A stretch of DNA of 64,000 bases from Candidatus Dormiibacterota bacterium (GCA_963709585.1 CAVPXI010000006.1:192001-256000); one strand, 5' to 3'; positions 4,080 through 40,799 are shown, numbered from the stretch's first letter. The notes: generated by a model not told the origin, from the sequence alone. Numbers and translations are program-made.

Positions 4080-4817
4080 ATGCGTTTGACGGTGCTCGGC
4101 AGCGGCAGCGCGTTCAGCACCTGCGGCTGCAACGCCGGGTACCTCGTCGACGGACGCGTGCTCGTGGACTGCGGCGCGCCCGTGCCCGCACTGATTCGCC
4201 GTGCGGCCACGTCGATCGACGCGATCTCGCTGATCCTGCTCACGCACTTCCACGCGGACCACTGCTTCTCGCTGCCGACCTTGCTCGGTGCCAGGGCGTT
4301 CGCGGGCACCCCCACGCCGGGCGCGCTGGCGATCGCCGGACCGGTCGGGACGCGTGAGTACGTGTCGCGCCTGCTGGGTGCCGGCTACGGCTCGCACATC
4401 CAGCACGACGTCGACGTCAACGTCGCCCCCGAGTACGTGGTGCTGCAGGAGGGCAGCGACGTCGAGATTGCCGGCTATCGGGTGCAAAGCCATGCGGTGG
4501 TGCACAGCACCGGCCCGTCACTTGCGTACCGTTTGAGCGACACCGCGGGTGCCTCGGTCGGGTTCTCCGGTGACAGCGAGCTGTGCGCCGGGCTCCGCCG
4601 TTCGATCGCCGGATGCGACCTCTACGTATGTGAGTGCACCGGGTGGGACGGCCCGACTCCCGGCGGTCATCTGTGGCGCGACGAGGTCGCGGAGCTGATC
4701 GCCGAGAATCCGAGCACGCGGTTTCTGCTGAGCCATCTGAGCGAACGCCGCCACCTGCCGGGCGCACTTGTCGCCCACGACCTGCTCAGCCTGGAGATCG
4801 CCTCGGCCGCAAGGTAG
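4080..4817 (+). CDS. MBL-fold metallo-hydrolase (RNase Z/PhnP-like)
   Basis: LGSGSA, THFHADH, FSGDS, ECT and LSHL motifs. Confidence 0.85.
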   Translation: MRLTVLGSGSAFSTCGCNAGYLVDGRVLVDCGAPVPALIRRAATSIDAISLILLTHFHADHCFSLPTLLGARAFAGTPTPGALAIAGPVGTREYVSRLLGAGYGSHIQHDVDVNVAPEYVVLQEGSDVEIAGYRVQSHAVVHSTGPSLAYRLSDTAGASVGFSGDSELCAGLRRSIAGCDLYVCECTGWDGPTPGGHLWRDEVAELIAENPSTRFLLSHLSERRHLPGALVAHDLLSLEIASAAR

Positions 4818-7077
4818 CCTGGCGGAGCGCTCGTCGCCAGATCCGGAGCGCCTGCGCTCGCTCGGACGGCGTGGCGCCGGATGCGCTGAACTCGGCGCGC
4901 GCGGTCACGTTCGCGAGCTCGCCGAGCGCCGCTCGAGCCCGGGGTCGAGCCCGGGCAAGCCGCGACGCAAATGCCCGGTGGGTCTCGGCTGATCGCCGGT
5001 CGACCCCGGAGATGACCCCTAGGGTCTCCACGCGCTTCCAGGCGCCGGCCAGTGAGCGCGGCAGCAGCATCCAGAGCAGCGCCGCGGCGATCAGGACGAC
5101 GATGCCGCCGAGCGCCGCCAGCGAGATCATTACCGACGCCGGGAGGGATGCGTGGCCCTTCGGAGTCTGGGTCACCTTGGGAGTGCCCACATCCGCAAAG
5201 CCGGGCTTCGGGGTCTTGCCCGAGGCGCTGGTCGGCACGGGAGTCGGCGTCGCGATACCGGCGCCCAGCTGGCCGCGGGGGAATGGTTGATAGTTGCCCT
5301 GGCCGGATGGCGGCGTCGGCTCGAAGGGGATCCACCCGTAGCCGGGAAAATACGCCTCGACCCAGTTGTGGGCGTCACTCGTGGTCACCTCTTCCTGGCG
5401 CTGGCCGGCGCGCCCGCTCTGCGCCCGCGCTGTTCCGGGACCGTATCCACCCACCAGCCGGGTCGGGATCTTGAGGCTGCGCAGCATCGATCCCATCGCC
5501 GACGCGAAGTACTGGCAATAGCCCTTGTGGCTCGTGGTCAGGAAGTAGACGACGTTCCAGGTGTTGGGGTCTGAATTCTGCGGTGGGTTCAGCGTGTATT
5601 GGAAGAGGGCGGGATCACGCAGGTGCTGCTCGATCGCGACCGCCTCGTCGTACGGATCCGCCGGCACCCCCTTGATCCACTGCAACGCGAGGCTGTGGAT
5701 CGCCTCCACACCCTGGCTGACGTCGTCGAGCATCACCGTGTACTGGCGCGTCCACCCCGGATAGTTCGTGCCCGCGGCGCTCAGCTGCGCCGCGGTGGCG
5801 GTCGGGATGTACGCGGTCGTGGCGATGGTGGTGCCCGCGACGATGTCGTGATTGAGTTGCACCTCGTCGACGCTGAGCAGCTGGTTCGCATCAGGTCCCC
5901 CCAGCGTTCCGTACGCGGTGCCCGGAAGGTTGGCTGATGCGGGGTCGCCCGTGAATGGGGCGAGCGGTTCCTCACCGGTCGCGTGCGGCTGCATGGTGAG
6001 CGTTGCCGTGATCGTCTGTTCGCTGCTGCCGACGCCACCGTCCGCGAGATTCGTGTCCCGCGGCAGCGGGCCCGGGGAATACAGGACCCCATTCCCACTG
6101 CCATTCTCTGGATACCAGCTGCCGTTGACGAATTGGGTGTCGTCGGCAATCCGGATGTAGACAGGGGCGATGGTATTGACCGAGTACGTCATGACGAGTT
6201 GCGGATGGCTGGTGAGCGGGCCGCCGAGGGTCACCGACGGGCTGAAGCCGATGGTGTCGGCACCGCCCACCGTGGTGGTCCCGGTGCCTCTCGGGTTCGA
6301 GCCGCTGCCGAGCCCGTGGGGGAAGAGCCGCGCCGAGATGTCCGTCGTCGACACCGGAGGGAGCAGCAGCGCCACGATGGTCAGCACCACCGCAACCCCC
6401 GCCGCGCTGCTCCCGAACCGCCAGCCGAGGCCGTCGAGCGCGGTGATGCGCGACGCCGCCCAACGATCGCCCAGGGATCCCAGGTAGGCGGCGGCGACCA
6501 CCGCGAGCGCGAGCACCACCGCGATCGTCTCGGGCAGGGCGATGGGGTCAGGGTCCTGCGCGTTGACGACATTTGTGGCAAGAACCGAGAAGACCGGAAT
6601 CACCGCGAGAACGCCCCGATGTTCGCGCAGGACCATCCATCCGAGCCAGTACCCGCAGAGGAAGAGGATCGCGCACAGGCCCACCGTAAAATCCCAGTCC
6701 TGTGTCGAGGCGAGCCCGGACACGAGCGCGCTCAGATAGTGCCCGGCGATAACGCCCGCGGTCTGGCCTGGAACAGCCGGCATCGCCGCGAGTGTCGTCG
6801 GGACGATGGCCGCGAGCCCGAGAAATGGGGCGGCGACCGCGGCGGCGATGCGCGGGGCGCGCGCCTGGGCGAGCAGCGCCGCCTCGATCACCGATGTGAC
6901 CGCGACCACGATCGCGCCGCCGCCGCCCTGAACCCAGCCGGCGGCCAGCACCGCCCAGGCCGTCGCCGCGATCAGGGCGACGCAGAGGACCGCTGCTATC
7001 TCGAAGCTGTAGCTCCTGCCCGATGCGGTTCGTGCCCGATCGCGGAGTTGGACGGTGCGGTCGACGTAGGCGTCCAT
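4786..7077 (-). CDS. Membrane transglutaminase-like protein (TgpA-like)
   Basis: N-terminal multi-TM region; catalytic GYCQYFASAM, AHNWVE, FEPTP; last gene of the MoxR-DUF58 operon; start placed at MDAYVD. Confidence 0.88.
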   Translation of the reverse strand: MDAYVDRTVQLRDRARTASGRSYSFEIAAVLCVALIAATAWAVLAAGWVQGGGGAIVVAVTSVIEAALLAQARAPRIAAAVAAPFLGLAAIVPTTLAAMPAVPGQTAGVIAGHYLSALVSGLASTQDWDFTVGLCAILFLCGYWLGWMVLREHRGVLAVIPVFSVLATNVVNAQDPDPIALPETIAVVLALAVVAAAYLGSLGDRWAASRITALDGLGWRFGSSAAGVAVVLTIVALLLPPVSTTDISARLFPHGLGSGSNPRGTGTTTVGGADTIGFSPSVTLGGPLTSHPQLVMTYSVNTIAPVYIRIADDTQFVNGSWYPENGSGNGVLYSPGPLPRDTNLADGGVGSSEQTITATLTMQPHATGEEPLAPFTGDPASANLPGTAYGTLGGPDANQLLSVDEVQLNHDIVAGTTIATTAYIPTATAAQLSAAGTNYPGWTRQYTVMLDDVSQGVEAIHSLALQWIKGVPADPYDEAVAIEQHLRDPALFQYTLNPPQNSDPNTWNVVYFLTTSHKGYCQYFASAMGSMLRSLKIPTRLVGGYGPGTARAQSGRAGQRQEEVTTSDAHNWVEAYFPGYGWIPFEPTPPSGQGNYQPFPRGQLGAGIATPTPVPTSASGKTPKPGFADVGTPKVTQTPKGHASLPASVMISLAALGGIVVLIAAALLWMLLPRSLAGAWKRVETLGVISGVDRRSAETHRAFASRLARARPRARAALGELANVTARAEFSASGATPSERAQALRIWRRALRQATLRPRRSPG

Positions 7078-32243: not shown

Positions 32244-33854
<1,611 letters not shown>

Positions 33855-33900
33855 GGTTCCTCCTGGTTTGATCCTCTAGCCTAGGGTTCCAGGAGCTAGT

Positions 33901-33950
33901 TTAGCACTCGGGTGGTCTGACTGCTAGCGGGTGGCAGGGGGGAGTGCTAA
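33901..33950. promoter_or_regulatory. CIRCE (HrcA operator) plus an extra half-site upstream of groEL
   Basis: TTAGCACTC-N9-GACTGCTAG at 33901-33927 and a perfect half-site GAGTGCTAA at 33942-33950; extended -10 TGcTAAACT on the minus strand. Confidence 0.88.
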
Positions 33951-33954
33951 ACGA

Positions 33955-33998
33955 CGGCCGCCGGATCGCACCACCGCTGGTGCGATCCGGAAGGGCCG
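33955..33998 (-). terminator. Strong hairpin downstream of the acidic peptide gene
   Basis: Perfect 13-bp stem CCGGATCGCACCA-ccgc-TGGTGCGATCCGG (33961-33990) plus outer CGGCC/GGCCG pairing; only a weak U-tract. Confidence 0.65.
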
Positions 33999-34019
33999 CC
34001 CATTCCCTTCGGAACTCGG

Positions 34020-34208
34020 TCAGCGACCGGGGTTCTTGACGTGGCCTTCGGTGTCGTCCTCGTCAGGCGTCGCCCGAGGGAAAACCGAGGGCTGCTCGTC
34101 GGGGTCGGCGCTCCTGTTTGGGTACTTGTGTCCGGAGGTGTCCTCTTCGTCGGTCTCGTTGATCCGGACCCCCGGGGCTTCCTGCTCGTCTGCCTTGTCC
34201 GTGCTCAT
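34020..34208 (-). CDS. 62-aa acidic peptide with two D-E-[E/D]-D-T-[S/E]-G-H repeats
   Basis: SD AGGAGA 6 nt before ATG; MSTDKADEQEAPGVRINETDEEDTSGHKYPNRSADPDEQPSVFPRATPDEDDTEGHVKNPGR; own -10 box and 3' hairpin. Confidence 0.75.
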   Translation of the reverse strand: MSTDKADEQEAPGVRINETDEEDTSGHKYPNRSADPDEQPSVFPRATPDEDDTEGHVKNPGR

Positions 34209-34281
34209 TGCCTGTCTCCTGTGGCGGCTGGGCCGCTGCTGTTGTGTTGCCCACATTCTGCGGAATCGAGATGGGGGAGTC

Positions 34282-34320
34282 AGTCGTCCACCTGACAGCT
34301 TCCGTGTCGGCGATCTGACA
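34282..34320. promoter_or_regulatory. Tandem Crp/CooA-type boxes upstream of the peptide gene
   Basis: AGTCG-N6-TGACA (34282-34297) and TGTCG-N6-TGACA (34305-34320, inside the CCGTGTC/GACACGG inverted repeat); minus-strand -10 CAGAAT at 34260-34255. Confidence 0.6.
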
Positions 34321-34361
34321 CGGCGGGGCAGCGACGACAGCGCAGGGAGGAGCCGGCGAGA

Positions 34362-35057
34362 TCAGTCGTGCTGGCCTGCTCTCCGTTGCAGCAGTTCCGG
34401 CTTCCGGATCACGATGCGCCGGCCGTCCAGCTCGACATATCCCAGCCGCTCAAAGGCGTTGAGGACCTGGTTGACGCTCTGCCGCGAACCGCCAACCATG
34501 TTGGCGAGGTCCGACTGAGTCAGATGCAGGTCCAGCGCCCGCCCCCCCGGTACGGGGGTGCCGCGCTCGTCCGCGAGGCGGAGCAGCAGTTTCGCGACGC
34601 GACCGTGCAGGTCCAGGAAGACCAAGTCGGCGGCTTGGTCGGTGAGCCGGCGCACCATCGTTCCCAGCGACCGCAGGAGACGGTCGACCAGCTCGGGCGA
34701 ACCCCGAAGCGCTTCCAGCAACGCAGTTCGACTGATCAGCAACACTGTGGTGGCCTCGACCGCCGCGGCCGATGCCGACCTCAGACCGCCATCGACCGTG
34801 GGCAGCTCACCGAACACCGATGACGGTTCCAGGGTCACGAGCAGCATCTCGTCGCCGTCGGGCGAGCTCCGGTAGACCTTCACGAGGCCGGTGACGACAA
34901 CACACAGTGCGTCACCGGCGTCGTCCTCACGGAAGATGACCTCTCCGCGCGCATACGACCGCCGGACCGCTCTCTCGGCAAGCCGCTCCACGGCGTCCGG
35001 CGGAAGCGTCCCAAAGAGGGAGGTGTTCTGCAGGAGCGCCTCATCGCCGCTGGTCAT
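34362..35057 (-). CDS. Crp/Fnr family transcriptional regulator
   Basis: SD GGAGG; cNMP pocket FGELPTVDGGLRSASA; HTH LTQSDLANMVGGSRQSVNQVL. Confidence 0.93.
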   Translation of the reverse strand: MTSGDEALLQNTSLFGTLPPDAVERLAERAVRRSYARGEVIFREDDAGDALCVVVTGLVKVYRSSPDGDEMLLVTLEPSSVFGELPTVDGGLRSASAAAVEATTVLLISRTALLEALRGSPELVDRLLRSLGTMVRRLTDQAADLVFLDLHGRVAKLLLRLADERGTPVPGGRALDLHLTQSDLANMVGGSRQSVNQVLNAFERLGYVELDGRRIVIRKPELLQRRAGQHD

Positions 35058-35133
35058 TCGACGTGCCTCCCTGGGCGTCACGTTTACAGGCGCGCTCCGA
35101 CGGCGCCGGCGAATTGTAGAGTGCCGGAACACC

Positions 35134-35883
35134 ATGGGTGATCGCGATTCGACGAGAGACGTGCTGGCAGATCTGACACAGCTCGCGGCCGACCTCGGCC
35201 CGGTGCTCCGCCCCCGCCGCGACGAGGAGTTTCTGCAGGCAATCGTCGAAACCGCGCGCCTCGTCTTCGACGCAGCGGCCTGCTCGATCGCGCTCTTCGA
35301 CGAGCGCGAGGAGGAACTCGAGTTCCGTGTCGCCGCTGGGAGTGGCGCCGAGGCGACCATCGGCCTGCGTATCCCCGCAGATCGCGGGATCGCGGGCTGG
35401 GCGCTCATGTCCGGACAGTCGATCGCCGTCGACGACGTCCGCCAGGATCCCCGCTTCGCCGCGGATGTCGCCGAGCGCACCGGCTACGTGCCCAACGCGA
35501 TCATGGCCATGCCGCTGGAGAGCGATCGTCAGACCTTCGGCGTTATCGAGGTGCTCGACCGTCAGCGGGGTGGCGGCGAAGGCGTCGACGACATGGAGTT
35601 GCTCGCCTTGTTCGCCCGACAAGCGACCCTTGCGGTCGAGACATCGCGGATCTTCTCGGGCCTCGGACAGGCGATCCTCGAGTCGGCCGCGCTCGCGACC
35701 CAGCGAGACGACCTTCGCCTCGCCCTTGAGCAGCGAGCCGCTCAGGCACCGCGACCCCAGGCGGAGCTTGCCGAACTCGCGCTGCTCTTTCACGATCTCG
35801 GCGTCCTCGGGCCCGAGGAACGGCGTGTCGCAGCCCGCATTGCAGACGACTTTCTCGCATACGCACGCAAGCAGCGCCGGTGA
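35134..35883 (+). CDS. Stand-alone GAF domain protein
   Basis: AAACSIALFD, GIAGWA, VRQDPRF, AIMAMPL, FGVIEVLD; helical C-terminal extension. Confidence 0.88.
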   Translation: MGDRDSTRDVLADLTQLAADLGPVLRPRRDEEFLQAIVETARLVFDAAACSIALFDEREEELEFRVAAGSGAEATIGLRIPADRGIAGWALMSGQSIAVDDVRQDPRFAADVAERTGYVPNAIMAMPLESDRQTFGVIEVLDRQRGGGEGVDDMELLALFARQATLAVETSRIFSGLGQAILESAALATQRDDLRLALEQRAAQAPRPQAELAELALLFHDLGVLGPEERRVAARIADDFLAYARKQRR

Positions 35884-36686
35884 AGCCGGCCTGGGCGTGG
35901 CAGTTCGACCCGGCGACCCTGCAGCGAGTGCGGGCGTCGCTCCCATCGGCGATCTCACGTGAGTGGGCGTGGGAGGGGAGCACCGGGGCAGGCGTCAAGG
36001 TGGCGGTCATTGACAGCGGGATCGATGCTGCTTATCCCGGAGTCGGGCCCCTCGCCGGTGGTGCGGTCGTCGTTGCCGATGCCGACGCGCCGCGAGGCGC
36101 TCGTGTTATCGAGGGGCCGCACGAGGATCTCTTCGGCCACGGCACGGCGTGTGCCGCGATCATTCGCCAGGCCGCGCCTGATGCCGAGCTGTACAGCATC
36201 AGGGTCCTTGGCGAACGGCTGACGGGACGCGGCATCGTGTTCGCCGAGGGCATGCGCTGGGCGCTCGCTGAAGGCATGCAGGTGCTCAACATGAGTCTGA
36301 GCACGTCGCGCGCAGACTACTTCGGGGTGTTCCACGAGATCGCCGACGACGCCTATTTCCAGGGAGCGATGGTCGTGTGCGCCGTCAACAACGTCCGCGC
36401 GCCAAGCTATCCGTCGCAGTACGCGTCGGTGTTTTCCGTCGCCGCTCACGAGGGACGGGATCCATTTCGCCTCGACTACAACCTCTCGCCACCGGTTGAA
36501 TTCGGAGCGCCTGGGATCGACCTCGAGGTCGGCTGGCTCGGCGGGAGGACCATTCGCGCGACCGGCAACAGCTTCGCGGCGCCGCACATCGCCGGATTGA
36601 TCGCTCGCATCCTCGGCAAGCATCCGGCGCTGACTCCGTTTCAGATGAAGACGGTCCTGATGGCGCTGGCGGACAACGCCTCGTAG
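35880..36686 (+). CDS. S8 (subtilisin-like) serine peptidase, apparently cytoplasmic
   Basis: Catalytic triad motifs VIDSG, HGTAC, GNSFAAPH; no signal peptide; GTGA overlap with the GAF gene. Confidence 0.92.
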   Translation: MKPAWAWQFDPATLQRVRASLPSAISREWAWEGSTGAGVKVAVIDSGIDAAYPGVGPLAGGAVVVADADAPRGARVIEGPHEDLFGHGTACAAIIRQAAPDAELYSIRVLGERLTGRGIVFAEGMRWALAEGMQVLNMSLSTSRADYFGVFHEIADDAYFQGAMVVCAVNNVRAPSYPSQYASVFSVAAHEGRDPFRLDYNLSPPVEFGAPGIDLEVGWLGGRTIRATGNSFAAPHIAGLIARILGKHPALTPFQMKTVLMALADNAS

Positions 36687-36701: not shown

Positions 36702-36717
36702 TGTCGCTCTGCTGACA
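36702..36717. promoter_or_regulatory. Crp/CooA-type box upstream of a cNMP-binding gene
   Basis: TGTCG-CTCTGC-TGACA, centred about -42.5 relative to the -10 GACAAT (36740-36745). Confidence 0.55.
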
Positions 36718-36752
36718 GACATTGCACCCCCGTTTCGCTGACAATGCGAGAC

Positions 36753-37178
36753 ATGACTGACAAGAAAACGCTGGTCAACCTGCTGAGTCGCAATCAACTC
36801 TTCGACGAGCTGAACAAGAAGGATGTCCTCGCGCTGATCAACTCGGCGAAGGAAGTTGACCACCGCGAGGGTCAGATGATCGTGGTCGAGGGGCATCCCG
36901 GAGTCGGTTTTCATCTGCTTCTTCAGGGCACCGCGATCGTGAGCAGAAATGGCCGAAAGCTCCGGACGCTGGGGCCTGGCGAGACGTTCGGCGATATCGC
37001 GGTCATCGACGGAGGACCTCGCAGTGCGTCGGTGCAAGCAGCGACCGCGCTCCGCACCCTGTCTCTGCCGCCATGGGAGTTCAAACCTCTGCTCCTGGAG
37101 CACCCGCGGATCGCCTACAGGCTGCTCGTCAAGCTCTGCACGCTGCTCCGAGAGGCCGAGAAGCGGCCGCCGCTCTAG
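36753..37178 (+). CDS. Stand-alone cyclic nucleotide-binding protein 1
   Basis: LGPGETFGDIAVIDGGPRSASVQA; no HTH; alternative start at 36744. Confidence 0.9.
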   Translation: MTDKKTLVNLLSRNQLFDELNKKDVLALINSAKEVDHREGQMIVVEGHPGVGFHLLLQGTAIVSRNGRKLRTLGPGETFGDIAVIDGGPRSASVQAATALRTLSLPPWEFKPLLLEHPRIAYRLLVKLCTLLREAEKRPPL

Positions 37179-37219: not shown

Positions 37220-40200
37220 TCAGGCACGCGCTTGTTGAGCCTCGGCCGCCGCTCCGGCGTCGAGCATGAGGGCGTCAACACGTTCGATCCACGGCGCGGC
37301 GGCGAGTTCGACGAATGACGTCCGCGCGGGTACGAACAACGCTTCGGCCTCGCCGCGCCGGCCACGATGCACGAGTGTGTCGCCGAGTTCCAATCGTGAG
37401 ACGGCGACCCAGAACGGCATCTGCCGCTGCTGAAACGCTGCGATCGCAGCGAGCGATTCTCGCATCGCGTCCTCTTCACGTCCCTCGAGCTCATCGAGGC
37501 GCGCGCGGAACCGCAGGATATGGGCATGCACGATCGGCCACACCGCGAGCGGGAAGCGTTCGGTTACCGCCTCGAGTAGCCGGCGTACCATCTTGAGGTC
37601 GCCCACGGCGAAAGCGGCTTCCACCGCCTCGACGATCGCCCAGCGCGAACCGTCGACAAAGTCCGAGGCGCCGCTGAAACGCTTTACGACGTCACCCATC
37701 AGCGCAAGGGCTTCACCGCTGCGCCCTTGCGCGCGGAGAATCGCGGAGCTCGCGGCGTCATGCGAGAGTTGATACTCGGGTCCCGCTCGCGCGCAGATGT
37801 CGGCCAAACGCTCGACGAGCCTGCGCGCATCGGGCTCCTCCCCGCGCCACACGTGGGGCCACGCCGCGAAGACCAGCTCGGCTCCGAGCAGCAAGTCCAC
37901 CACCACCACTTCTTTGGCAAGCAAGTCGGCCACCACGCCGCTGGCTTCATCCCAACGACCGAGGTCCACCAGCACGGGTATCCGCCCGATGAGAAATTGG
38001 ATCTCGTCTCGACGCAGTCCCATCAACCGTGCGAGGTCGAGCGCTGCGGCGGTGTATTCTGCCGCGCGCGCGGGTTCGAAACCCTGTAAAGAGGCAGCCA
38101 GGTTGTTATACGCACGCAACGCCGCTCCGTGAAGATCCGACGCAAGAGCCTGGTCGAGCGCACACGTCAGCAGGGCACGCGCCTCCTCGTGCCGTCCGCG
38201 ACCGCCGAGGATGAGTTCCTTGGTATTGACCGCCTGGCAGAACACCTGCGCATGTCCGTGTCGCTCGGCGAAGTCCAGGGCAAGTTCGACCCGCTCCATG
38301 GCGACGACGCCGCTGCGGCCGGACAGAACCATCCGGCGCGCGACCTCCGCCGCGACCACCGCCAGGTCCTCCTCGTGGTTGGCATCGCCAAACTCCACCG
38401 CGCTGAGCTCAACGAACGCGCGCTCCATCCGATCCGCGGCTTGGTCACGCTTCAATTCGTGAGCATCGATTTCGGCCAGGGTGATCGATGTCCGAGCAGC
38501 CGCGCCGAGACGACCGGCCGCCGCGTGCAGCGCAACCGCCTCGTCGAGATGCCGCCTGGCCTTTTGTGCATGGACCTGCTGCCACGCCATCTGTCCGGCG
38601 CGAGCGTGCAGCGTGGCCAGGTCAGCGGCGTCAGCGAGCTCAAGCGCACGTTCGTAGTAGTGCTCGGCGGACGCGGCGGCAGCGAGCGATGCTGCATGGT
38701 CGCCTGCTCGCACCAGCGCATCACGTGCACGCTGGCGGAGTCCCCCTGCGTCGAGGGCATCAACGTCAGCCTCGAACGCCTCGAGGAGGTGCGAGGCGAT
38801 GACTTCGGCAACTCCTTCCTCCTCGCTCCACGCGCTCTCCAGGTATGCGGCCGCGCTCAGGTGGCGCACCTTGCGATCGCGTCGGGACAGTGTCCCGTAC
38901 GCGACGCTCCGCACCAGGTCTTGCACAAAGACATACTGGCCGCGCTCGGGTGATCTCGGGTCCGACTGGATGGCAAGCAGATCTTTGCTGACCAGCGTGG
39001 CGAGGCCCGGCTCGACTGTGTCCGTCGCGAGCGCCGTGACCGCCCGCAGCCCTGCGGCGGTAAAGGATTTGCCGAGGACCGCCGCATCCTGCAACAGCTG
39101 ACGCTCGGCACCACCGATGCTGTCCAGCCGTGCGGCGATCAGAGCGTGGAGGGTCTCGGGGACCTCCAGCGAGTTCGAGCGATCCCTCGACGTGGAACGT
39201 GCCGCCCCTCGCGACGAGGAGGCCGCGGTCCATCAGCATCCGCACCGTTTCGACTGCGTAGAGAGGCACGCCCGCGGCGCGCTCGAGAATGCGCGCGCTC
39301 AGGTCGTCGGGAAGGCCTGGTGCCATGCCGGCCAGCAGCTGCGACATGGCCTCAGGCGGAAGCGGATCCAGAGAGAGCGAGGTGGACCCTCGCTTGCCCG
39401 TGCCCCAACCTGAACGACGATCGGCCATCTCCGGGCGCGCCAGCGTGATCACAAGGATCGGGGAGTTGCGCGACCACTCGAGGAGGTATTCGATGAAGTC
39501 AAGCAGACCGCTATCGGCCCATTGCAGATCCTCGAACACAAGGACGGTGAGGTTCTCTGCAGCGAGGCGCTCGAAGAAGAAGCGCCACGCCGCGTAGAGA
39601 TCGCGCGGATCCGTGGCGACGCGCTCCTCGAGACCGACGAGGTGCGCGAGGCGGGGTTCCACCCACCGCCGCTCCTCACCCGGCTCGACGAATTCCTCGA
39701 CGGTACGCCGCAACTTCTCACGCGCCAACTCCGGTGGCTCGTTGTCGAGAATGCCGGCACGCATACGCACCATCTCGCTCAGCGCCCAGTAGGCGACACC
39801 ATCTCCGTAGGCGAGACAGCGCCCGCGATGCCACCAGATGGGTTCCGTGACCCCGTCGACGTACTTGAAGAACTCCCAACCGAGGCGCGACTTCCCGACG
39901 CCGGCAAGGCCGACGATCGAGAGCAGGCGCGCCGTGCGCTCCTCGCCGGTCGCGTGCAGGAACTCCTTGATCAGTCGCAACTCCCGGTCGCGTCCGACGA
40001 ACGGCGGTTCCAGTCCGGTCGGGCGGAGCGCCCCTCCGGCCGCCGCAACGACGCGTTGCGCTCGCCACAGACGCTCCGGTTCAGGCTTTCCCTTGAGCTC
40101 GTGCACCCCAGTGTCCTCGTAAGCGATCGCGGCTTCCGTGGCGACGCGAGTCCCGTCACCGACATAGACAGCTCCGGGCTCAGCCGCTGCCTGCACGCGA

Positions 40201-40799
40201 GATGCAGTGTTGATGAGGTCGCCGGCGACCATCCCCTCGCCTCTCACTCCGACGCTGACCGCGACTTCGCCGGTCATCAGCCCCGCTCGGGCCTGCAGAC
40301 CGGCCGCACCGACCTCGTCGCCAAATGCGACGACGGCATCGACCAGCTCGAGCGCTGCGCGCACCGCTCGCTCGGCGTCGTTTTCTTGACTGGTGGGCAC
40401 GCCCCACACGGCCATGACAGCGTCGCCGATGAACTTTTCAACCTGGCCACCGTAGCGAGCGATGATCGTGCGCGCGGTGTCGAAGTAGCGACTCAGGAGT
40501 TCGCGGACGTCCTCAGCGTCGCGCTGCTGAGAGAGTGGTGTGAATCCCACCAGGTCGGCAAACAGCACGGTCACATGGCGGCGTTCGGTGAGACGCGCCG
40601 GCTCGATATGGGCTGGCGCAGATGAGGGGCTCGTCCGCGAGGGTTCCGCCGACAGCTGTGCGCCGCACCCGCCGCAAAAACGCTCGTCCTCGTCGTTCGG
40701 CGCCCCGCAGGCGGGGCAAGGCCGGTCCAGAGAGGAGCCACATTGGCCGCAAAAGCGCCGGCCCGCCCGGTTTGCGGAACCGCAGGCGGTGCAGGTCAT
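37220..40799 (-). CDS. Double zinc ribbon / class III nucleotidyl cyclase / STAND ATPase / TPR-like protein, split by a +1 insertion at ~39174 (probable error)
   Basis: Four CxxC; FADLVGFT, EKFIGDAVM, GDLINTASR; Walker A GLAGVGKS, Walker B VFEDLQWAD; restoring GACTC gives LDSLEVPETLHALIAARLD continuing into ORF 37220..39094. Confidence 0.9.

Follow-up and report, generated by a model that had tools for sequence, protein, structure and literature searches.

The window analysed here, a stretch of 64,000 nucleotides from a Candidatus Dormiibacterota bacterium, contains a small protein gene, in the following referred to as PEP, which is surrounded by genes for a Crp/FNR-family regulator, a GAF-domain protein, an S8 subtilase (S8) and a stand-alone cNMP-binding protein (Table 1). 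A preliminary description of the sequence had proposed a 62-amino acid acidic peptide with a duplicated DE[E/D]DT[S/E]GH motif at this position, and translation confirms both features. The full-length protein has a mass of 6.9 kDa, contains 17 aspartate and glutamate, 7 lysine and arginine and 2 histidine residues and has a computed pI of 4.3 and a GRAVY of -1.69. The good Shine-Dalgarno sequence and the lack of a signal peptide, which had been noted as well, are likewise found: AGGAGA is located 6 nt in front of the ATG, and the N-terminus, MSTDKADEQEAPG, is acidic and without a hydrophobic stretch. An AlphaFold2 model based on the family alignment is devoid of secondary structure (mean pLDDT 61, pTM 0.13); PEP is predicted to be disordered, as would be expected for a carrier of linear motifs.

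Table 1. Features of the PEP region and of larger proteins with the same motif. Positions refer to the window unless a locus (L) is named.
Feature	Position	Strand	Remarks
PEP, small protein gene	34020-34208	-	62 amino acids plus stop; translation, homologues, dN/dS, RNA contigs
Motif copy 1, DEEDTSGH	34128-34151	-	PEP residues 20-27; translation, repeat analysis
Motif copy 2, DEDDTEGH	34041-34064	-	PEP residues 49-56; translation, repeat analysis
Shine-Dalgarno sequence AGGAGA	34215-34220	-	6 nt 5' of the PEP ATG; read from the sequence
Stable hairpin	33953-34000	-	just 3' of the PEP stop; -54 kcal/mol for a 101-nt stretch, z -3.8
Promoter-like hexamers CTGACT-17-CAGAAT	34255-34283	-	weak, 8 of 12 matches; read by eye
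Crp/FNR-type palindrome TGTCAGATCGCCGACA	34305-34320		starts 112 nt upstream of the PEP start
Crp/FNR-family regulator	34362-35057	-	231 amino acids; cNMP-binding domain and HTH_Crp_2; directly upstream of PEP
GAF-domain protein	35134-35883	+	249 amino acids; C-terminal helical part; stop overlaps the S8 start
S8 subtilase	35880-36686	+	268 amino acids; catalytic core only; Pfam Peptidase_S8 1.2e-24
Second TGTC-N8-GACA palindrome	36702-36717		begins 42 nt 5' of the gene for the cNMP-binding protein
Stand-alone cNMP-binding protein	36744-37178	+	144 amino acids; domain scans; lies after S8
Larger motif-bearing protein	L088 4269-5162	+
Larger motif-bearing protein	L093 3996-4856	-
Larger motif-bearing protein	L094 4462-5226	+
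Larger motif-bearing protein	L149 1158-1838	-
Larger motif-bearing protein	L097 6840-7652	+

The aspartate, threonine, glycine and histidine residues of the motif are invariant across the alignment of PEP relatives (A1). At the DNA level, the two copies form a 24-nt direct repeat with 75% identity and a spacing of 87 nt (29 codons), and an exact 9-nt repeat, CTGCTCGTC on the plus strand, which encodes DEQ, recurs with a spacing of 90 nt. The repeat analysis found no further repetition in the DNA between the motif repeat and the DEQ repeat, which bears out the earlier observation that the spacer DNA between the conserved DEQ and the motif has diverged. A paralogous PEP of 60 amino acids is encoded on contig 4 of the same genome (G000, 305775-305957, minus strand; L002 1501-1683). 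Its first motif is intact (DDDTKGH) and its second is decayed, and the gene sits between oxidoreductase-like genes, far from any gene for a Crp, GAF or S8 protein.

Among the neighbouring genes, the Crp-family regulator matched no specific characterised subfamily above the cut-off. The model of the GAF protein (pLDDT 82.5) shows a GAF core followed by four helices, and a fold comparison places it closest to GAF domains that bind cAMP or cGMP, with the GAF domain of Lcd1 with cAMP as the top match (E 5e-13, 29-30% identity); judged by this nearest fold, the protein is predicted to be of the cAMP type. The S8 subtilase possesses neither a signal peptide nor a pro-domain, and its best solved relative, subtilisin BPN', aligns over the mature enzyme only. 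Since the catalytic residues D45, H87 and S231 and the oxyanion residue N171 are invariant in 45 orthologues, we expect the protease to be active. Among known families, it comes closest to QhpE (NF049966) and mycosin without belonging to either of them. In a PADLOC search, S8 obtained a generic 'subtilase' match only, the cNMP-binding domains matched PycTIR-type effectors, and PEP and the GAF protein had no match. The small cNMP-binding protein gene is followed by a cyclase-ATPase gene. In the window, this adenylate cyclase-AAA_16 gene (37220-40799, minus strand) is found in two overlapping frames, 38766-40799 and 37220-39094; relatives carry a single ORF of about 1190 amino acids (e.g. L036 11170-14739), and the two frames probably result from a frameshift or from an error in the assembly.

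On the other side of PEP lies groEL (32244-33854, minus strand), an adjacency that is not conserved (L004). The region upstream of groEL (33895-33955) contains the CIRCE half-sites TTAGCACTC and GAGTGCTAA, which are about 33 nt apart instead of the 9 nt of the CIRCE consensus; weaker arms lie between them, so that the region reads as two overlapping imperfect CIRCE-like elements.

PEP is a genuine small-protein gene. Its GC content by codon position (0.67/0.46/0.83) follows the pattern expected of a coding frame and thus counts for a real gene. Relatives with the start of PEP were found for 13 of 15 candidates in a sequence search, a second search yielded 16 cluster representatives that share this start, and a narrow profile (A2) matches 64 of 492 candidates. 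These relatives differ in length by whole repeat units or whole codons. The expectation that annotation pipelines would miss or mis-start the gene turned out to be wrong: the 62-amino acid protein and its relatives are already present with the same start in predicted-protein collections, and an NCBI 'hypothetical protein' is 83% identical to PEP. A longer version of PEP starting at the ATG at 34256 was considered and rejected, as the relatives begin at MSTD or MTTD.

Summed over all pairs of seven orthologues of the genus, dN/dS of PEP is 0.38. Divided by columns, the same orthologues yield a dN/dS of 0.18 for the columns of the motifs and the N-terminus and of 0.57 for those of the spacers, a contrast that is partly circular because the former columns were picked by conservation. 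In comparison with the closest relative, dN/dS of PEP amounts to 0.82 on only 40 synonymous sites; the corresponding values are 0.057 for crp, 0.078 for S8 and 0.025 for groEL. Most of the chain is hence barely constrained, whereas the motifs and the N-terminus are. Selection on the peptide motif, as had been suggested from the diverged spacers, fits these values within the limit set by the choice of columns. That PEP is a chance ORF or a non-coding RNA has a practically negligible probability: such an origin might be suspected from the small size of the gene, the high GC content of the genome and the long spurious ORFs that run across the gene on either strand, but the protein sequence, start and frame of PEP are conserved, its indels keep the frame and its dN/dS is below 1. 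With regard to a non-coding RNA, no Rfam family reached the threshold in the PEP region; the only match was sX13 on the opposite strand, with 23.5 bits versus the required 50.

The preliminary description had named translation as a point to be checked; PEP is found in RNA libraries. Three soil metatranscriptome runs from three studies yielded contigs of 222 nt (34020-34232), 307 nt (33937-34234) and 272 nt (33951-34206), all of which carry an identical in-frame 9-nt insertion that matches a 65-amino acid allele from the protein search. Two of the contigs begin 24-26 nt 5' of the ATG, within 2 nt of one another (34232-34234), and two extend to 33951 and 33937, 2-16 nt beyond the hairpin that follows the PEP stop; such contigs prove neither transcript ends nor levels. 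The hairpin is the likely 3' end of the PEP transcript, and the contigs hint at a short monocistronic mRNA. In the same three runs, the cover over 34313-36000, which comprises crp and the GAF gene, is zero; a fourth run, probably of DNA, does cover this stretch and serves as its control, and neither the depths nor the missing cover of crp and the GAF gene are usable to rank expression. A scan for sigma-70 promoters upstream of PEP found no site at a threshold of 9 of 12 matches. At 34221-34239, just 5' of the Shine-Dalgarno sequence of PEP, the minus strand contains a GC-rich hairpin (GCGGC-CCA-GCCGC); the RNA contigs begin inside it, and in the scan it was classed as terminator-like for the plus strand.

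Upstream of PEP lies a palindrome of the form TGTC-N8-GACA. Two such sites are present in the window compared to 0.4 expected, and the whole 3.5-Mb genome contains 16 compared to 5 for a control pattern. The palindrome was found in 24 of 40 upstream regions of PEP genes, and in 23 cases it starts at -110 to -137 from the start codon, a position that is conserved in several families and also occupied in the window; shuffled upstream regions contained it in 0.10 cases on average and in 2 at most. Given its form and the neighbouring regulator gene, the palindrome is most simply read as a candidate operator through which the adjacent Crp controls the PEP gene. Operators of the TGTCA-N6-CGACA type are known for CooA, a member of the Crp/FNR family. 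The PEP locus shares with CooA sites a 16-bp palindrome with TGTC and GACA arms upstream of the target and beside a Crp-family gene; however, the Crp found here matches no characterised subfamily above the cut-off, and its palindrome is a candidate operator only. TGTC-N8-GACA also precedes the gene for the small cNMP-binding protein in the window and in three relatives, and it is found ahead of genes for family-5 (oligopeptide/nickel-type) solute-binding proteins that adjoin S8 in two relatives (L044 11144 and L046 10739). This distribution suggests a small local regulon.

The PEP family is undescribed and modelled in neither Pfam nor NCBIfam: scans against both databases found no model for PEP or for 10 members of the wider family, and the ESM Atlas returned only unnamed clusters for PEP at 0.83, a value under the level that counts. 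In the literature, as far as titles and the openings of abstracts tell, we found no description of the motif family or of the Crp/GAF/S8 module. Those relatives of PEP that have source names are proteins from Candidatus Dormibacterota metagenome-assembled genomes, all of them annotated as 'hypothetical'. A profile built from more distant members (A3) finds at least 490 clusters of small proteins among 8000 candidates. Conserved in this family is only a unit of an acidic block followed by [TV]-[ES]-G-H, which is present in one to eight copies with free spacers; in some members of the D-[TV]-[ES]-G-H family, the copies are perfect tandem 14-18-mers. PEP belongs here by its two motif units, by its match to the profile and by its module with Crp, GAF and S8. 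With the narrow profile, PEP was detected in 22 of 374 genomes of the class, namely in 21 of the 42 genomes of its own genus, the genome studied here included, and in one genome of a second genus. The wider profile is positive for 19 of 401 genomes of the phylum sample, with a concentration in one family (12 of 16 genomes).

The PEP gene is a fixed part of a cyclic nucleotide-wired module, which consists of Crp, PEP, GAF and S8 and often includes MFS::cNMP, a transporter of the MFS_3 'secretion effector' type fused to a cNMP-binding domain. Loci of the own genus keep crp-PEP beside GAF-S8; in the window, the module is rearranged, with GAF-S8 divergent from crp-PEP, and the MFS::cNMP orthologue of this genome (77% identical) is encoded on another contig and has no perfect palindrome in its vicinity. 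Of 14 loci from other families of the phylum, 11 contain Crp, PEP, GAF and S8, mostly in that order on one strand; two loci carry Crp and PEP only, with S8 absent from the region (L087 and L098), and one is a false match. Overall, the genes that recur around PEP are only those for Crp, GAF, S8, MFS::cNMP, cyclase-ATPases and cNMP-binding proteins. ORFs with the same motif thus adjoin S8, GAF and Crp genes in many genomes, and the comparable small ORFs near homologous loci whose lack would have spoken against the preliminary description exist.

To quantify this linkage, 65 regions were tallied, the window and 64 loci, among them 30 loci of S8 orthologues. In this sample, which is biased as 34 of the 64 loci were chosen through a PEP match, S8, GAF and Crp occur together in 41 of the 65 regions; 33 of these 41 encode a PEP with at least two motifs of the strict pattern, four more contain a looser or decayed PEP-like ORF (L155, L158, L153 and L040), and in at least four no PEP-like ORF was found. 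MFS::cNMP is present in 24 of the 41. Fifteen regions encode S8 and GAF without Crp, with PEP in one of them, a region that begins at a contig end, and MFS::cNMP in two (L054 and L156); S8 and GAF alone are found in 13 of the 65 regions. The occurrence of GAF-S8 pairs without PEP implies that the protease has other substrates or needs none of the PEP kind. In L153, the position between crp and the GAF gene is occupied by a 114-amino acid ORF (4765-5109, plus strand) with FHP[ST]PTG repeats and a single decayed unit, EDTEGQ; this slot retains a repeat protein even with the motif decayed.

Presence and absence in whole genomes follow the same line. Both PEP and S8 are encoded in 21 of the 42 genomes of the genus, S8 only in one, in which S8 is located 1.6 kb from a contig end, PEP only in none and neither gene in 20; as these genomes are related and not independent, the table shows that the genes travel together, no more. 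In the phylum sample, an S8 orthologue was found in 44 of 401 genomes (G145 counted), which include 18 of the 19 genomes that are positive for the wider profile, and PEP adjoins S8 in at least 24 of the 44.

From this gene context, PEP is best read as a protein under Crp control that serves the GAF-coupled S8 subtilase as a substrate or multi-copy precursor, an interpretation to which we give a probability of roughly 0.45. Three proteins of the module carry cyclic nucleotide sensor domains, and PEP is taken as the cargo since the other module proteins are all regulators, enzymes or transporters. According to this reading, the adjacent Crp would turn on the PEP gene as its nucleotide ligand rises, and the GAF-coupled subtilase would bind the PEP motif as a short linear recognition site and cut the chain at or near each copy, thereby making PEP a multi-copy precursor or a degradable substrate, whose fragments may be exported in those cases in which the module includes the gated MFS transporter. 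The swap between threonine and valine, the tolerant third position and the invariant Gly-His would fit P4 to P1 of a subtilase substrate, and our guess is a cut after Gly-His with the β-branched threonine or valine in the S4 pocket. The preliminary description had considered a protease substrate or a multi-core precursor; in this general form its proposal is the best-fitting one, whereas a strict RiPP precursor lacks support, since the scanned ORFs contained no peptide-modifying enzyme.

A more elaborate version, in which a single cNMP gates the expression of PEP, the licensing of S8 via GAF and the export by MFS::cNMP, is tentative and, as a whole, doubtful. Here, cAMP or another cNMP would turn on PEP through Crp, the GAF partner would let the subtilase dice the chain at each D-[TV]-[ES]-G-H, and the cNMP would open the MFS::cNMP pump, so that short acidic histidine-containing peptides would be exported and serve in signalling or in the binding of metals; if the chain were cut in front of [ES]-G-H, for example, an amino-terminal X-X-His copper/nickel site would be exposed. 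However, with 14-29 residues the fragments would be bulky substrates for an MFS pump. Several observations also speak against the substrate reading itself. The tightest neighbour of PEP is crp and not S8, and a pair of regulator and target would explain this arrangement without proteolysis; PEP paralogues exist outside the module, including the copy on contig 4; many GAF-S8 pairs occur without PEP; in the own genome the MFS::cNMP orthologue lies on a different contig; and, judged by the dN/dS of 0.82 against the closest relative, selection hardly acts on most of the PEP chain. A complex prediction for S8 (alignment A4) and PEP (alignment A2), run without controls, gave ipSAE values of 0.00 and 0.01, compared to a mark of 0.32, and speaks neither for nor against the substrate reading.

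PEP could instead act uncleaved, as an abundant, Crp-induced, hydrophilin-like acidic protein for stress protection or metal buffering, with the protease merely being a neighbour. Hydrophilins, which are induced by water deficit, are defined by a glycine content above 6% and a mean hydrophilicity above 1, and PEP, with 4 glycines among 62 residues (6.5%) and a GRAVY of -1.69, has this composition. Hydrophilins and LEA-like repeat proteins such as B. subtilis GsiB are small and disordered, consist of a tandem hydrophilic unit and have an abundant mRNA. PEP resembles them in its size, predicted disorder, strong hydrophilicity and tandem unit, the copy number of which differs among species; the motif differs, however, and PEP is tightly linked to a module of protease, GAF protein and regulator. 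In line with a stress or metal function, the RNA contigs of PEP in soil metatranscriptomes are short and separate, with the neighbours unseen, the gene has a dedicated Crp-type palindrome as predicted operator, and groEL adjoins it in the window. Moreover, the Asp/Glu/His units might bind a divalent metal, and some relatives carry histidine-rich tails after the motif, such as EGHHHHG in L146. Nevertheless, we regard this explanation as unlikely, considering that the groEL adjacency is not conserved, that the PEP family is found almost only in genomes with an S8 orthologue, and that the strict five-residue motif with its invariant Gly-His and its threonine-valine swap resembles a docking or cutting site more than a loose repeat.

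The gene linkage would also fit if PEP were a regulatory subunit, i.e. a pseudo-substrate inhibitor or adaptor, which docks via its motifs on GAF or S8 and frees the protease upon nucleotide binding. S8 has no pro-domain to restrain it, GAF and S8 are translationally coupled, and the fold matches of the GAF model include phosphodiesterase 6 complexes with P-gamma, a disordered inhibitory subunit on this GAF-containing enzyme. One to eight motif copies with free spacers would, however, be odd for a stoichiometric subunit, and the many GAF-S8 pairs without PEP also count against this role, which we consider rather improbable. Very little speaks for PEP as a partner of Crp, in which the acidic chain would bind Crp, for instance as a DNA mimic or co-factor, and tune its activity: crp is the most constant neighbour, also at the two loci where Crp and PEP occur without S8 in the region (L087 and L098), and PEP is highly acidic, but the adjacency of a regulator and its target together with the conserved palindrome explains the pairing more simply, and a DNA mimic would not need the conserved histidine and glycine. 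Scarcely conceivable, finally, is a classical RiPP precursor, the cores of which would be chemically modified before cleavage. PEP does share with multi-core RiPP precursors the repeated conserved cores and variable spacers, and an S8 protease is at hand; yet when 20 ORFs, 10 from the neighbourhood of PEP in the window and 10 further module neighbours in relatives, were scanned against Pfam, no peptide-modifying enzyme (YcaO, radical SAM, LanM, ATP-grasp or similar) turned up, and none belongs to the set of genes that recur around PEP.

Multi-core precursors that are cut by S8 proteases are known from the cyanobactins, with PatE and the proteases PatA and PatG, and from yeast and fungi, in which the α-factor or repeat precursors are processed by Kex2. 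As a substrate or precursor of S8, PEP and its module would work most like these systems: PatE and the α-factor precursor are likewise small ribosomal products with repeated units, variable spacers and a copy number that varies between species, and have a subtilisin-family protease alongside. In contrast to the cyanobactin system, the 20 ORFs scanned include neither a heterocyclase or macrocyclase nor any other modifying enzyme, and S8 is a bare cytoplasmic core without a match to PatA or PatG. The PEP module further differs from the cyanobactin and α-factor systems in that the conserved unit comprises only about 6-8 residues, that cyclic nucleotide sensor domains are present throughout and that cleavage is inferred.

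In Bacillus, the Phr signalling peptides are processed by subtilisin, Epr and Vpr and are re-imported by Opp. Like these, PEP would give rise to short unmodified peptides from a small precursor via an S8 protease, and genes for family-5 binding proteins (SBP_bac_5) adjoin the module in three of 64 loci (L044, L046 and L054) and, according to one of two queries, in a fourth (L152); no match to such a protein was found anywhere in the 64-kb window. Unlike the Phr precursors, PEP carries no N-terminal secretion signal, as its N-terminus is acidic and the protein strongly hydrophilic, its protease is cytoplasmic, and no receptor of the RRNPP type was seen. The best family match of S8 (E 1e-30), QhpE, is the cytoplasmic subtilisin-like leader peptidase in the maturation of quinohemoprotein amine dehydrogenase (NCBIfam NF049966). 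Both proteases are small and lack a pro-domain and a signal peptide, and QhpE acts on a small peptide inside the cell, as S8 would do. However, S8 scores only 106.7 bits where the curated cut-off demands 165, so that it is no member of this family, and no QhpC- or QhpD-like genes were present among the ORFs scanned.

What the window adds is a rearranged Dormibacteria version of the module with only two non-identical units, together with the transcript evidence, the co-occurrence table of the genus and the operator statistics. If the preferred reading of PEP as a substrate or precursor is correct, abundant uncultured soil bacteria, of which Candidatus Dormibacterota metagenome-assembled genomes are the nearest named relatives of the host of PEP, would make short peptides by a route without a described parallel, in which a repeat mini-protein, a sensor-coupled cytoplasmic subtilisin and a nucleotide-gated pump are under the control of one second messenger. 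Small 'hypothetical' proteins of at least 490 clusters would thereby obtain a function and cAMP signalling in these phyla a concrete output, and the module would provide a natural, compact genetic system for regulated intracellular peptide release. Should the version with export also hold, it would represent a new kind of unmodified, multi-copy ribosomal peptide system of soil Chloroflexota. Even if PEP is not cut, it is a member of a transcribed, Crp-linked family of predicted disordered proteins that is modelled by no database.

The motif is not restricted to small proteins. The match of profile A3 in contig 50 of G213 (L097) was rejected as a PEP; it is a membrane protein that carries the motif. 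A second family of larger proteins, for which there is no Pfam model and no match in the own genome, contains D-[TV]-[EQS]-G-H twice (e.g. ...DDTEGHAISVRFPT...). In these proteins, the motifs are located N-terminally and precede a single hydrophobic helix and a long tail rich in Ala, Gly and Pro, and an S8 gene adjoins four of the five genes (Table 1).
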